DNA from: Candidatus Falkowbacteria bacterium
Lineage (GTDB): Bacteria; Patescibacteriota; Patescibacteriia; UBA11705; JABHMO01
Direction of reading: 5' to 3'
Length of the DNA stretch: 64,000 nucleotides
Assembly: GCA_018693855.1 (NCBI GenBank)
Contig: JABHMO010000043.1
Span: 4,450 to 68,449, forward strand
Of the stretch, positions 55,184 through 58,058 are shown in pieces. The stretch's first letter is position 1; every line of letters starts with the position of its first letter. The position numbers were made by a program, and so were the translations under genes. The notes under the pieces are model-generated. The model had not been told where the DNA came from and did not search any database. It worked only from the letters and a program-made list of their open reading frames with translations.

Positions 55184-57193
55184 ATGCCAAAACCGACTAC
55201 GAAAAAGACTAAACAAAAAGACAAATCATCATACGGTGCTGATAATATTCAGGTTCTTGAAGGATTGGCTCCAGTTCGAAAAAGACCGGGAATGTATATC
55301 GGAAACACAGCTGAAGAAGGATTGCATCACATGCTTTGGGAAGTTGTTGATAATGGAATTGATGAAGCAATGGCTGGCCATGCTGACACTATTGTTGTTA
55401 AAATTTTACCAGATAACATTATCCAAGTTATTGATAATGGTCGAGGAATTCCTGTCGAAATCCACAAATCAACAAAACTTAGTGCGCTTGAAACTGTCAT
55501 GACAAAACTTCACGCTGGTGGTAAGTTTGGTGAAGGTGGAGGTTATAAAGTTTCCGGTGGTCTTCATGGTGTAGGTGTTTCTGTTGTAAATGCGCTATCA
55601 ACATCACTAAAAGCTGAAGTAAAAAGAGATGGTAATATTTATTTTCAAGAATTTAAGAAAGGTGTTTCTCAAGGAAAAGTTAAAAAACTTGGAACAATTA
55701 AAAGAACATTAAAACCAGACCCACTATATCCAGAAAAGGCTTTCTCTGCTGGAACTCAAGTCACGTTCAAACCAGACGGTGATATTTTCACTGTTCTTGA
55801 GTACCAATGGAAGAAGATTTTAACCCGACTTAGACAGCAAGCTTATCTAACAAAAGGAATCAAAATTATTGCAATTGATATTCGAGATAAAAAGAAACCC
55901 AAACAGTTTGGATTTTATTTCGAAGGTGGAGTTGCTTCATACTGTAGACATTTAAATATTAATGACAAACAAAAACACGACAACATTTTCTACATTGAAA
56001 AAGAAGTTGATGATATTAGTATTGAGATCGCAATTAAATATACAGAAGAGTATAATGAGACACTACTAGCTTTTACAAATAACATTCTTAATCCAGAAGG
56101 TGGAATGCACGTAGCTGGTTTTCGAACTGCTCTAACTAGAACATTAAACACATACGCAAGAAAAAATAACATATTAAAAGAAAAAGACGAGAATCTAACA
56201 GGTGATGATGTTCGTGAAGGACTGACAGCTGTAATTAGTATTAAATTGCCTGAACCTCAGTTCGAAGGACAGACAAAAGCTAAACTTGGTAATGCAGAAG
56301 TAAAACCTGCAGTAGAATCAGTTCTGTCAGAACAGTTAGCAATATTCCTAGAAGAACATCCTCGTGATGCTGAAGCAATCATTGGAAAAGCTTTACTCGC
56401 TGCGACTGCCAGACGAGCTTCAAGAGCTGCTCGTGAAACAATCCTAAGAAAAGGTGTTTTAGACAGTTTAAGTCTGCCAGGTAAACTAGCTGATTGTTCA
56501 TCAAAGGACAGTGAAAAATGTGAAATCTATATCGTGGAGGGTGACTCTGCGGGTGGTTCAGCTAAGCAAGGTCGTGACAGAAAAACTCAAGCGATTCTAC
56601 CACTTCGTGGAAAAATCCTTAACGTAGAAAAAGCCAGAATCGATAGAATGCTTGCTAACAATGAAGTTAAATCATTAATTATTGCACTTGGAACAAATCT
56701 TGGCGAGCAGTTCGATGTATCAAAACTTCGTTACGGAAAAATCATTATTATGACCGATGCGGACGTAGATGGATCTCATATTAGAACTTTGTTATTAACT
56801 TTGTTTTATCGACATTTCCAAGAACTTATCAAGCAAGGACATCTATACGTTGCTCAGCCACCATTGTATAGTATTAAAAAAGGCAAAAAACTTGTATACG
56901 CTTTTGATGAGGATGAACTGCAAGTATTATTAAAAGAAAACGCAGCGACAAGAAAAGAATCTTCAACAAAAAAGAAAAACGAAGAAGAGACTGACGATAA
57001 AAAAGAAGCTGAGACAGACACTGTTAACGAAGAAGAGATGACAGAAGATGAACGAGACTTGAAAGCTGCTGGAGTACAACGATATAAGGGTCTTGGAGAA
57101 ATGAACCCTGCACAACTTTGGGAAACAACTATGGATCCAGCAAATCGAATGCTAAAGAAAGTAACAATTGAAGACTGCGAAAAAGCTGATTAG
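55184..57193 (+). CDS. gyrB: DNA gyrase subunit B, ending at an in-frame TAG; the conserved last 26 codons continue in frame to 57280
   Basis: GLHHMLWEVVDNGIDEAMAGH, the GyrB ATPase, the toprim EGDSAGG, and PLRGKILNVEKAR. After ...VTIEDCEKAD comes TAG (57191-57193), then in frame [31 protein letters not shown]. This is the canonical GyrB C-terminus, cf. E. coli ...[33 protein letters not shown]. Confidence 0.9.
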   Translation: MPKPTTKKTKQKDKSSYGADNIQVLEGLAPVRKRPGMYIGNTAEEGLHHMLWEVVDNGIDEAMAGHADTIVVKILPDNIIQVIDNGRGIPVEIHKSTKLSALETVMTKLHAGGKFGEGGGYKVSGGLHGVGVSVVNALSTSLKAEVKRDGNIYFQEFKKGVSQGKVKKLGTIKRTLKPDPLYPEKAFSAGTQVTFKPDGDIFTVLEYQWKKILTRLRQQAYLTKGIKIIAIDIRDKKKPKQFGFYFEGGVASYCRHLNINDKQKHDNIFYIEKEVDDISIEIAIKYTEEYNETLLAFTNNILNPEGGMHVAGFRTALTRTLNTYARKNNILKEKDENLTGDDVREGLTAVISIKLPEPQFEGQTKAKLGNAEVKPAVESVLSEQLAIFLEEHPRDAEAIIGKALLAATARRASRAARETILRKGVLDSLSLPGKLADCSSKDSEKCEIYIVEGDSAGGSAKQGRDRKTQAILPLRGKILNVEKARIDRMLANNEVKSLIIALGTNLGEQFDVSKLRYGKIIIMTDADVDGSHIRTLLLTLFYRHFQELIKQGHLYVAQPPLYSIKKGKKLVYAFDEDELQVLLKENAATRKESSTKKKNEEETDDKKEAETDTVNEEEMTEDERDLKAAGVQRYKGLGEMNPAQLWETTMDPANRMLKKVTIEDCEKAD

Positions 57194-57280
57194 ATATTTG
57201 ATATTTTAATGGGCGCAGAAGTTGCACCAAGAAAGAGATTTATTCAGACACATGCGAAGAGTGCTAATTTAGATATATAA
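57187..57280 (+). repeat. Direct repeat copy 1 (gyrB 3' coding end); partner at 57968-58058
   Basis: An ~86-nt near-identical copy with 4 substitutions, all synonymous in the GyrB frame. Confidence 0.75.
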
Positions 57281-57444
57281 ATAGTAATAATAATAATAAT
57301 AAAGACTCTACATTAGCAAACTAGTTGAACAAGTCGTAATTAGAGTATTTTTTAACAAATTATATTTACTAACTTTGGCTTTATTTAGCATAATATGGAT
57401 ATTATCCCACATTATTTACTAATCTAAAGCCTAAATAAATACAT

Positions 57445-57822
57445 ATGTCGCAGTTTGACCAGCCCCCCCAAGAGCCAACAGTAGAACAACTTATCGATCA
57501 ATTAAAAAAAGAAGCTCACTTAGCTTATCTAAAAAGCATGGAACTTGAAGATAAAAGTGGGTTGCTTGAAAAAGGTGTTTCGCCTGAAGAATTTGAAGCT
57601 TCGGAAAAAGCCTTTAAGGAACTAGGATTCAACATTGGAGACAGGGTCGAATTTAAATGTACGGGACAAACTCATGATGAATGGGTGGAAGGTGATATTA
57701 TGGCCTTTTCTGTTCATGAAGATGATCGTAAATCAAAAGTTTTAATATATGATAACTCAGGGGGCAGAGGATACTCAGACATTGACTTAATGGATGCTAA
57801 ACATAATATTAAAAAAGTATAA
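57445..57822 (+). CDS. Hypothetical acidic protein (125 aa) inside the repeat-bracketed cassette
   Basis: MSQFDQPPQEPTVEQLIDQLKKEAHLAYL.... No SD. Followed by a strong terminator at 57832-57878. Confidence 0.4.
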   Translation: MSQFDQPPQEPTVEQLIDQLKKEAHLAYLKSMELEDKSGLLEKGVSPEEFEASEKAFKELGFNIGDRVEFKCTGQTHDEWVEGDIMAFSVHEDDRKSKVLIYDNSGGRGYSDIDLMDAKHNIKKV

Positions 57823-57831
57823 AATTACTAA

Positions 57832-57878
57832 AAACGCTCCAAACGGGATTAATGATCTTGTATGGAGCGTTTTATTTT
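57832..57878 (+). terminator. Rho-independent terminator
   Basis: aacgctcca-N21-tggagcgtt followed by TTATTTT. Confidence 0.6.
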
Positions 57879-57967
57879 ACTTAATTTCATCCTAAATATC
57901 ATTAACAACAATAATTCTCATTTTTTATTAAGACTATAATGTTAAAAATGCAGAAAGAACCGACGAA

Positions 57968-58058
57968 ATATTTGATATTTTAATGGGCGCAGAAGTTGCA
58001 CCAAGAAAGAGGTTTATTCAGACGCATGCGAAGAGTGCTAATTTGGACATTTAGTCAC
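57968..58058 (+). repeat. Direct repeat copy 2: displaced gyrB 3' end encoding a mini-ORF ([38 protein letters not shown])
   Basis: Weaker similarity extends upstream: [10 protein letters not shown] here versus MLKK..EKAD in gyrB. It ends with TAG. Confidence 0.7.

Follow-up and report, generated by a model that had tools for sequence, protein, structure and literature searches.

Integrative elements that target the 3' end of a gene (a tRNA, tmRNA or protein gene), among them prophages and integrative and conjugative or mobilizable elements, are flanked by direct repeats, one of which overlaps the targeted gene at its end. A substitute for this end comes with the insert, and the displaced original end adjoins host DNA. 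The attachment (att) site attB of Tn5253 is 83 bp long and lies inside rbgA (PMC6079316). Cis-mobilizable elements (CIMEs) are decayed integrative and conjugative or integrative and mobilizable elements that retain attL and attR and have lost the genes for integration and transfer (PMC5704250). In T4-like phages, MobA and the gene 60 bypass cassette are inserted in the gene for a type II topoisomerase subunit (bioRxiv 10.1101/2022.08.31.505936). The locus described here is the 3' end of gyrB, the gene for gyrase subunit B, in a 64,000-nucleotide stretch of DNA (the window) from Candidatus Falkowbacteria bacterium, a member of the candidate phyla radiation (CPR; Patescibacteria). The stretch covers positions 4,450 to 68,449 of contig JABHMO010000043.1 (GenBank assembly GCA_018693855.1). 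The end of gyrB is present there twice, on either side of a small cassette with one orphan open reading frame (ORF), and it is somewhat probable that the arrangement arose by insertion of a mini-element that restored the gene end.

The gyrB locus resembles the gene-end elements in each of these respects: direct repeats flank the insert, one of them overlaps the targeted gene at its end, the insert appears to supply the replacement end and the displaced end adjoins host DNA. The repeat of 84 nt is comparable in length to the Tn5253 attB. Unlike the gene-end elements, the insert has no recombinase gene, is only 774 bp long and carries a single orphan gene. As in CIMEs, att-like repeats bracket DNA without recombination genes; however, the insert is much smaller than a CIME, and no cognate integrase-bearing element was found. 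With the MobA and gene 60 arrangement it has in common a small cassette that lies within the part of a GyrB-family gene coding for the C-terminus, and some genomes have a stop codon where the gene is disrupted. In contrast to that system, the ORF of the gyrB cassette has no homing endonuclease domain or fold, there is neither a 50-nt gap nor a bypass signal, and gyrB is repaired by a duplicated end, not by recoding. We know of no CIME-type element that has been characterised in CPR bacteria, and no report of integration at the 3' end of gyrB was found in the literature.

The host part of the gene, codons 1-669, occupies 55184..57190 on the plus strand and contains the Pfam domains HATPase_c, DNA_gyraseB, Toprim and DNA_gyraseB_C. 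In the window the ORF runs from 55184 to 57193 and ends in TAG. The DNA_gyraseB_C match covers model positions 4-43 of 63 and stops at this codon (57191-57193). The frame past the TAG stays open for 28 codons and is closed by TAA at 57278-57280; this tail (copy 1, 57194..57280, plus strand) completes a GyrB of 698 amino acids in the allele that has GAG in place of TAG. A second tail of 28 codons, ending in TAG (copy 2, 57968..58054, plus strand; coding part 57968-58051), lies 774 bp downstream of the first. An earlier reading made by a model from the letters and a list of ORFs (the sequence-only reading) had reported the in-frame TAG followed by a conserved tail, and a duplication of the gyrB 3' end around a cassette with an ORF and a terminator, and both of these claims were confirmed. 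The nearest other GyrB, a metagenomic protein without a name, is 88% identical to that of the window. Named proteins from Falkowbacteria, Kuenenbacteria and other Patescibacteria are 73-76% identical, and a scan of GTDB representative genomes with GyrB found only relatives of at most 52% identity.

Contigs of the same species were gathered by exact-protein look-up with the 125-residue ORF of the cassette and a neighbouring ORF of 173 residues. They were recovered from at least 10 ENA and JGI samples and are almost identical to the window, one of them (L017) differing from it by a single base over 8.5 kb. Every contig that reaches the region carries the cassette and both tails. At least 14 independent assemblies from a single near-clonal CPR population, produced with different assemblers, show the duplication and the cassette in identical form, and an assembly artifact was therefore rejected as the source of the duplication. 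A genome-wide process was rejected too, the tail repeat being the only one of its kind in the 64 kb. Over about 9.7 kb and 15 contigs, a T/G difference at 57191, the first position of the TAG codon, is the only substitution common to more than one contig. The remaining variation consists of a C tract in the orphan ORF that is C7 or C8 long, of changes confined to single contigs of low coverage, and of substitutions that cluster towards one end of contig L018. There, eight substitutions fall at window-equivalent positions 55444-55486 in a contig that is otherwise identical; they suggest that this contig end is chimeric or that recombination with a second strain has replaced a patch in the 5' region of gyrB.

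The two tails are identical at 81 of 87 positions, and the leading 44 nt are the same in both. Five differences are synonymous third-position changes (copy 1/copy 2: AGA/AGG, ACA/ACG, TTA/TTG, GAT/GAC and ATA/ATT), and the stop codons also differ, TAA in copy 1 and TAG in copy 2. The probability that five of five differences would be synonymous by chance is about 3e-4 to 1e-3. The sequence-only reading had counted four differences, all synonymous; the synonymy stands, the count does not. That reading had also put the duplicated unit at about 40 codons and had taken copy 2 for a 38-residue mini-ORF, with both copies kept under coding constraint or homogenised by gene conversion. Homology reaches 7 codons upstream of the 28-codon block and then drops to chance, giving 35 codons, and the mini-ORF was rejected as a frame error. 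Its ATG at 57939 lies in the +1 frame relative to the copy-2 tail, opening MLKMQKEPTKYLIF followed by a stop codon. The frame of copy 2 itself has a TAA at 57929 and then no ATG, GTG or TTG before the Met of LMG. Lacking an in-frame start, copy 2 is unlikely to have been under selection in place. It is identical in every same-species contig that reaches it. The silent-only divergence is better explained if both tails had been working gyrB ends before they were joined.

In a relative with 88% GyrB identity (L016), a hairpin terminator lies directly 3' of the gyrB stop codon. Aligned over 39 nt, it shows 90% identity with positions 58100-58137 of the window, which follow copy 2. The homologous hairpin of the window, the native gyrB terminator (58104..58138, plus strand), has a folding energy of -15.3 kcal/mol, compared with -19.7 kcal/mol in L016. 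No terminator follows copy 1, where the folding energy is -4.7 kcal/mol, and the DNA after copy 1, including 57281..57444, does not resemble what lies downstream of gyrB in any relative. Because the L016 gyrB terminator matches the one after copy 2, it is copy 2 that represents the displaced original end of the gene. On this sequence comparison, copy 2 with the terminator that follows it is the ancestral gene end, and the insert spans 57194-57967 or, shifted within the repeat, an equivalent stretch. A single tail and no cassette are found in the relatives whose GyrB identities are 88%, 79% and 76%. An empty site, which the sequence-only reading had proposed to seek in related genomes, is seen in L016, L015, L014 and the P0002 contig; there is none of the same species among 18 contigs carrying the downstream neighbour.

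The 21 nt that immediately precede copy 2 (57947..57967, plus strand) are a diverged relic of seven gyrB codons, NAERTDE (AAT GCA GAA AGA ACC GAC GAA), and may be the left arm of an att-like site of the insert. The relic agrees with the gyrB of L015 at 16 of 21 positions and with that of L016 at 15 of 21. Chance matches as good as these occur at 2 of the 64,000 window positions (3e-5). Its agreement with copy 1 is only 10 of 21, with three amino acid replacements, and the 21 nt upstream of the relic match gyrB at the level of chance. In the tails the relationship is reversed: they match L015 at 70-71 and L016 at 60-63 of 87 positions, against 81 of 87 between themselves. The third-position identity between the tails is 0.82, whereas that between the window gyrB and L016 is about 0.5. 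Since relatedness flips at codon 670/671, this boundary marks a recombination junction. The right edge of the repeat coincides exactly with the stop codon. There is no divergence breakpoint along gyrB.

These properties make it somewhat probable that 774 bp were inserted in the last 28 codons of gyrB, with the two tails as left and right junctions, by a CIME-like mini-element that has no recombinase and is either decayed or mobilised in trans. We infer the mechanism of recombination and the direction of events to be as follows. A circular element with an attP site mimicking the gyrB 3' end would have recombined with gyrB. The incoming DNA would have carried a diverged left arm of 7 codons, a 28-codon tail and the orphan gene with its own promoter-like site and terminator. 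The crossover would have taken place inside the common tail, most likely within the 44 identical nt. The host gyrB body would thus have been joined to the insert-borne tail (copy 1, attL-like, ending in TAA), keeping GyrB at 698 residues. The left arm of the element would have been joined to the host tail (copy 2, attR-like, ending in TAG) and the host terminator, which were pushed 774 bp downstream, the tail persisting as an untranslated relic. The left arm of attP would never have been coding and would have drifted freely, giving the 7-codon relic. To the right of the crossover, the sequence has to code for a functional gene end and would be swapped with the host at each integration and excision; such an exchange of tails under coding need would lead to high identity and silent-only differences. 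Having lost its own terminator, gyrB probably reads into the orphan gene up to the terminator of the cassette, which now probably also ends the gyrB transcript. The insert-restored ORF appears as 698-residue GyrB gene calls in the GAG assemblies, and the orphan cargo ORF is confined to this species. Of the four possibilities raised in the sequence-only reading, integration of an element with an att site that overlaps the 3' end of gyrB is the best-fitting, in view of the native terminator after copy 2, the relatives without the insert and the junction at codon 670/671.

Several observations weigh against an insertion of this kind. No integrase, transposase or other recombinase was found in the insert or among the window ORFs scanned, a scan that was not exhaustive, and neither the window nor the viral contigs nor the sampled relatives yielded an integrase-bearing element of the same att specificity. 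Neither a free or differently placed copy of the element nor an attP-like isolated gyrB tail was present in the IMG/VR and JGI contigs scanned. The first junction pattern used with JGI contigs had 0 matches; the 44-nt core pattern matched one further same-species contig only and nothing viral; and the IMG/VR scan with the tail peptide returned whole gyrB genes (L027 and L028) and one spurious match (L029). The 690 bp of non-att DNA are far smaller than described integrative elements, and the element is only putatively mobile. The sole, weak hint of an alternative junction comes from contig L009, with a coverage of 2.8x, in which positions 1783-1864 correspond to window 57941-58022. It ends within copy 2 with a copy-1-type base at 58012. 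This could be a de Bruijn path switch in the 44-nt core, or a read from a circle, a tandem or a converted junction. Finally, the TAG/GAG site lies 3 nt from the junction, and the insertion does not explain why the only common single-nucleotide polymorphism (SNP) should be situated there.

One of the whole genes returned by the IMG/VR scan is a viral gyrB homologue (L028, positions 5409-8180; UViG_3300001687_001194, a 161-kb contig) that is interrupted at about residue 459 by about 850 nt, probably an intein or an intron.

Codon 670 (57191..57193, plus strand) is polymorphic in the assembly comparison. It is GAG (Glu) in 11 assemblies (L002-L005, L007-L009, L017-L019 and a 144-kb JGI contig, in which it is implied by a 698-residue gene call) and TAG in three (the window, L001 and L006). 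The three nearest relatives have GAA at this codon, as does the equivalent codon of copy 2. The ancestral residue is therefore Glu, and not the Gln of the one-step CAG-to-TAG change suggested in the sequence-only reading. The T is not templated by copy 2, because copy 2 has GAA there. L006 and L007, drawn from two JGI data sets, are contigs of 3155 nt with position 57191 as their sole difference; they are probably assemblies of the same or very similar material, in which case both alleles co-exist within one sample. T and G have each been found with MEGAHIT, SPAdes and other assemblers in different samples. As far as the assembled sequences can tell, the TAG is most likely a genuine G-to-T mutation of GAG that segregates beside the intact allele. 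Neither codon reassignment nor the duplication accounts for it.

An alternative genetic code with UAG reassigned was rejected, as TAG ends 18 of the 79 window ORFs of at least 120 residues (TAA 36, TGA 25) and release factor 1 (RF1) is present. The RF1 gene, correctly recognised in the sequence-only reading, is located at 44050..45204; the protein has PCRF and RF-1 domains and a PxT-type motif, 'VPETE', and prmC adjoins the gene. No other interrupted genes were noted in the window. Unless it is read through, the TAG would shorten GyrB by 29 residues, which form two conserved C-terminal helices. No report of a natural truncation of the GyrB tail was found in the literature. The sequence-only reading had listed truncation, suppression or readthrough, and sequencing error as explanations of the TAG. 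Sequencing error is unlikely with TAG in three assemblies and GAG in eleven; a genome-wide reassignment is excluded, and readthrough and truncation both fit the assemblies. It had also held that reads with CAG or GAA at 57191 would reduce the locus to an insertion with a duplicated target. Most assemblies have a sense codon there, GAG, which leaves such an insertion and, in addition, a segregating nonsense SNP.

The two tails might also have arisen without an incoming circle. In an old in-situ duplication of the gyrB end, the orphan gene would have arisen or landed between the copies, and repeated gene conversion would have kept the 84-nt block nearly identical. If conversion went in both directions, it would have exposed copy 2 to selection by proxy, and the sequence upstream would have drifted, out of reach of conversion. 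The sharp edge of the block, which is 93% identical against about 50% in the flank, is as expected of a self-limiting conversion tract; the first 44 nt are identical, and the silent-only differences could follow from selection by proxy. However, the relic differs from copy 1 as much as it does from gyrB genes in other species, so that the duplication would predate the species splits and would have to have been lost in every relative at 88%, 79% and 76% identity. Moreover, the stop codon is the exact limit of the repeat, the native terminator is present only once, and a simple tandem event would have repeated the cassette, so that this history is doubtful. An import by one-sided homologous (homology-facilitated illegitimate) recombination, in which the 3' part of gyrB from a sister strain and the cassette that natively followed it were joined illegitimately just upstream of the recipient tail, would likewise give a donor tail, the cargo and then the recipient relic with the native terminator. 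It needs no recombinase, and the silent-only differences would be orthologous divergence. In that case, though, the relic should resemble copy 1 as closely as the tail does, yet it agrees at 10 of 21 positions with three replacements. There is also no divergence breakpoint to mark the imported part of gyrB, and no strain was found with the cassette in a simpler native context; such an import is considered unlikely. The tails are like the template and variable repeats of a diversity-generating retroelement (DGR) in their length of about 90 nt and their place at the 3' end of a gene, and five of the six differences between them have A in one copy. Such an element was rejected, because there is no reverse transcriptase among the ORFs scanned and because every difference is silent and at a third position, contrary to the outcome of DGR mutagenesis.

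The TAG could be present at the consensus level because the truncation is tolerated, because UAG is decoded leakily, because each cell has several copies of the genome, because a second copy was collapsed in assembly or because gyrase is under selection. A nonsense allele that is actively maintained, the truncated GyrB being viable or rescued by readthrough or multiple genome copies and the polymorphism being linked to the element, for instance as a gyrase switch or as resistance to a gyrase-directed toxin, seems quite unlikely. It is highly improbable that the TAG is decoded or avoided, either by readthrough or suppression at GAU-UAG-AUA or by a ribosomal hop from GAU (codon 669) to GAC at 57962 and on into GAA-AUA-UUU of copy 2. 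Three assemblies do have a nonsense allele of an essential gene at the consensus level, with the tail in frame after it, and the T4 gene 60 bypass, which is located in a topoisomerase gene and borne by a mobile element, also has a stop after the take-off codon and matching codons for take-off and landing (bioRxiv 10.1101/2022.08.31.505936). Against this, the code is standard, RF1 is present and most genomes have GAG; no suppressor tRNA occurs in the window (its only tRNA being tRNA-Asp) and no Rfam recoding motif was found. A hop over 771 nt would exceed any known bypass more than 15 times and is very unlikely. There remains a systematic sequencing or assembly artifact at 57191, or a collapsed second copy. 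The site lies 3 nt from the repeat boundary, a place where assemblers are prone to error, and L006 and L007 are seemingly two assemblies of similar data in which different bases were chosen. However, T occurs in neither copy of the repeat and could not be created by mis-threading of the assembly graph, and it recurs in MEGAHIT, SPAdes and other assemblies of different samples, while G is found with the same assemblers. To our knowledge the local context contains no Illumina error motif. An artifact accordingly appears highly improbable.

Within the insert, copy 1 is followed by AT-rich DNA (57281..57444, plus strand) with a (TAA)n run and a promoter-like sequence, TTTACT-18-CATAAT, at 57365..57394. 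The orphan ORF, the putative cargo of the insert, encodes 125 residues (57445..57822, plus strand). It belongs to no Pfam, PHROG, PADLOC or NCBIfam family, and among 5.8 billion proteins only its own cluster was found. An exhaustive HMMER search of 1.8 billion representatives gave, besides its own kin, only P0122. This protein was rejected as a relative, since it is an adhesin of the YadA type and owes its inflated score to six near-identical repeats. The search for mobile-element kin proposed in the sequence-only reading thus yielded no PHROG family, and no viral relative was found. The AF2 model of the protein, which has low confidence (pLDDT 62), predicts two helices and a small barrel; a fold search with this model gave only weak matches to Tudor/SH3-like barrels, the best having E = 0.08. 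A homing endonuclease or a defence gene found no support, there being no HNH, GIY-YIG or LAGLIDADG-type domain and no nuclease or recombinase fold. A group I or II intron or a ribozyme in the insert was rejected, as there is no Rfam match to it at the gathering score. The cassette ends in an intrinsic terminator (inverted repeat I3; 57831..57880, plus strand) composed of a strong hairpin at 57831..57873, with a folding energy of -24.3 kcal/mol, and a U-run after it (UUUUAUUUU).

A poly-C tract at 57463..57469 (plus strand) in the orphan ORF has seven C in the window and eight in L018, L019 and L025. The ORF is open at both lengths through alternative starts, ATG giving 125 residues and TTG 122; the 122-residue protein P0001 begins MTSPPQEPT. 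The difference in length could be due to phase variation or to a homopolymer sequencing error.

The spacer between gyrB and secE is hypervariable among related CPR genomes (window 57281-59298, L014 2389-3909 and L015 4433-4546). In L015, secE begins 115 nt after gyrB with no ORF between; the L014 spacer has two unrelated small ORFs, and that of the P0002 contig has one ORF of 221 residues. The window spacer contains three orphan ORFs of 125, 173/180 and 58 residues. The spacer ORFs of the window, L014 and the P0002 contig have no homology to one another.

On the proposed reading, the architecture is an ordinary kind of event, an insertion that restores the end of its target gene, but it is unusually small and lacks a recombinase, and it has gyrB as a new target in a CPR host. 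If the proposed insertion is correct, integration with restoration of a gene end takes part in shaping the tiny CPR genomes as well, the mobile elements of which are poorly known; an essential housekeeping gene such as gyrB can be the target of integration; and the insert is among the smallest att-flanked units described. It would also illustrate a route by which an orphan gene becomes co-transcribed with a core gene. The TAG polymorphism is the more intriguing part, being a premature stop in an essential, universally conserved segment that is the consensus in several samples of an otherwise invariant population. It would be a natural experiment on the question whether these organisms can dispense with the C-terminal helices of GyrB or have a leaky UAG. 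For annotation, no pseudogene or recoding should be called for this gyrB from a single assembly.

Between the stop codon of copy 2 and the native terminator there is a heptamer array, (CACGTAR)x4, at 58056..58083 (plus strand), which is missing at that place in L016. Arrays of four CACGTAR units, 28 nt long, are found at six intergenic sites of the window: 9555-9582, 19831-19858, 41467-41494, 43402-43436 and 58056-58083 on the plus strand and 30659-30686 on the minus strand. The array at 30659-30686 is situated between a TATAAT box and the start of a gene, and those at 19831 and 58056 are followed by a hairpin terminator about 30 nt further on. The arrays could be a family of leaders, operators or small RNAs.

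The window has a G+C content of 38.8%. Rfam gave nothing at the gathering score in the window beyond tmRNA and tRNA-Asp, and a permissive scan returned noise with E of about 1 or higher. A second type of array, with a 10-bp periodic GAAGTRAATC unit repeated 3-10 times, occurs at five intergenic sites (3208-3336, 20435-20523, 27753-27861, 52443-52551 and 60115-60183). Two giant ORFs on the minus strand, of 3395 residues (31189-41376) and 1463 residues (3385-7776), are made up of long tandem repeats within the ORF, the periods being about 105-117 and 174 nt. On the plus strand the repeat DNA is rich in ATC/GTC and ACA triplets, so that the minus-strand ORFs would be rich in Asp and Cys; they probably encode surface proteins. 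An ORF of 123 residues (26090-26461, minus strand), located between two genes for MacB/FtsX-type ABC transporters, belongs to the '23S rRNA-intervening sequence protein' family PF05635 (E = 2.6e-28).

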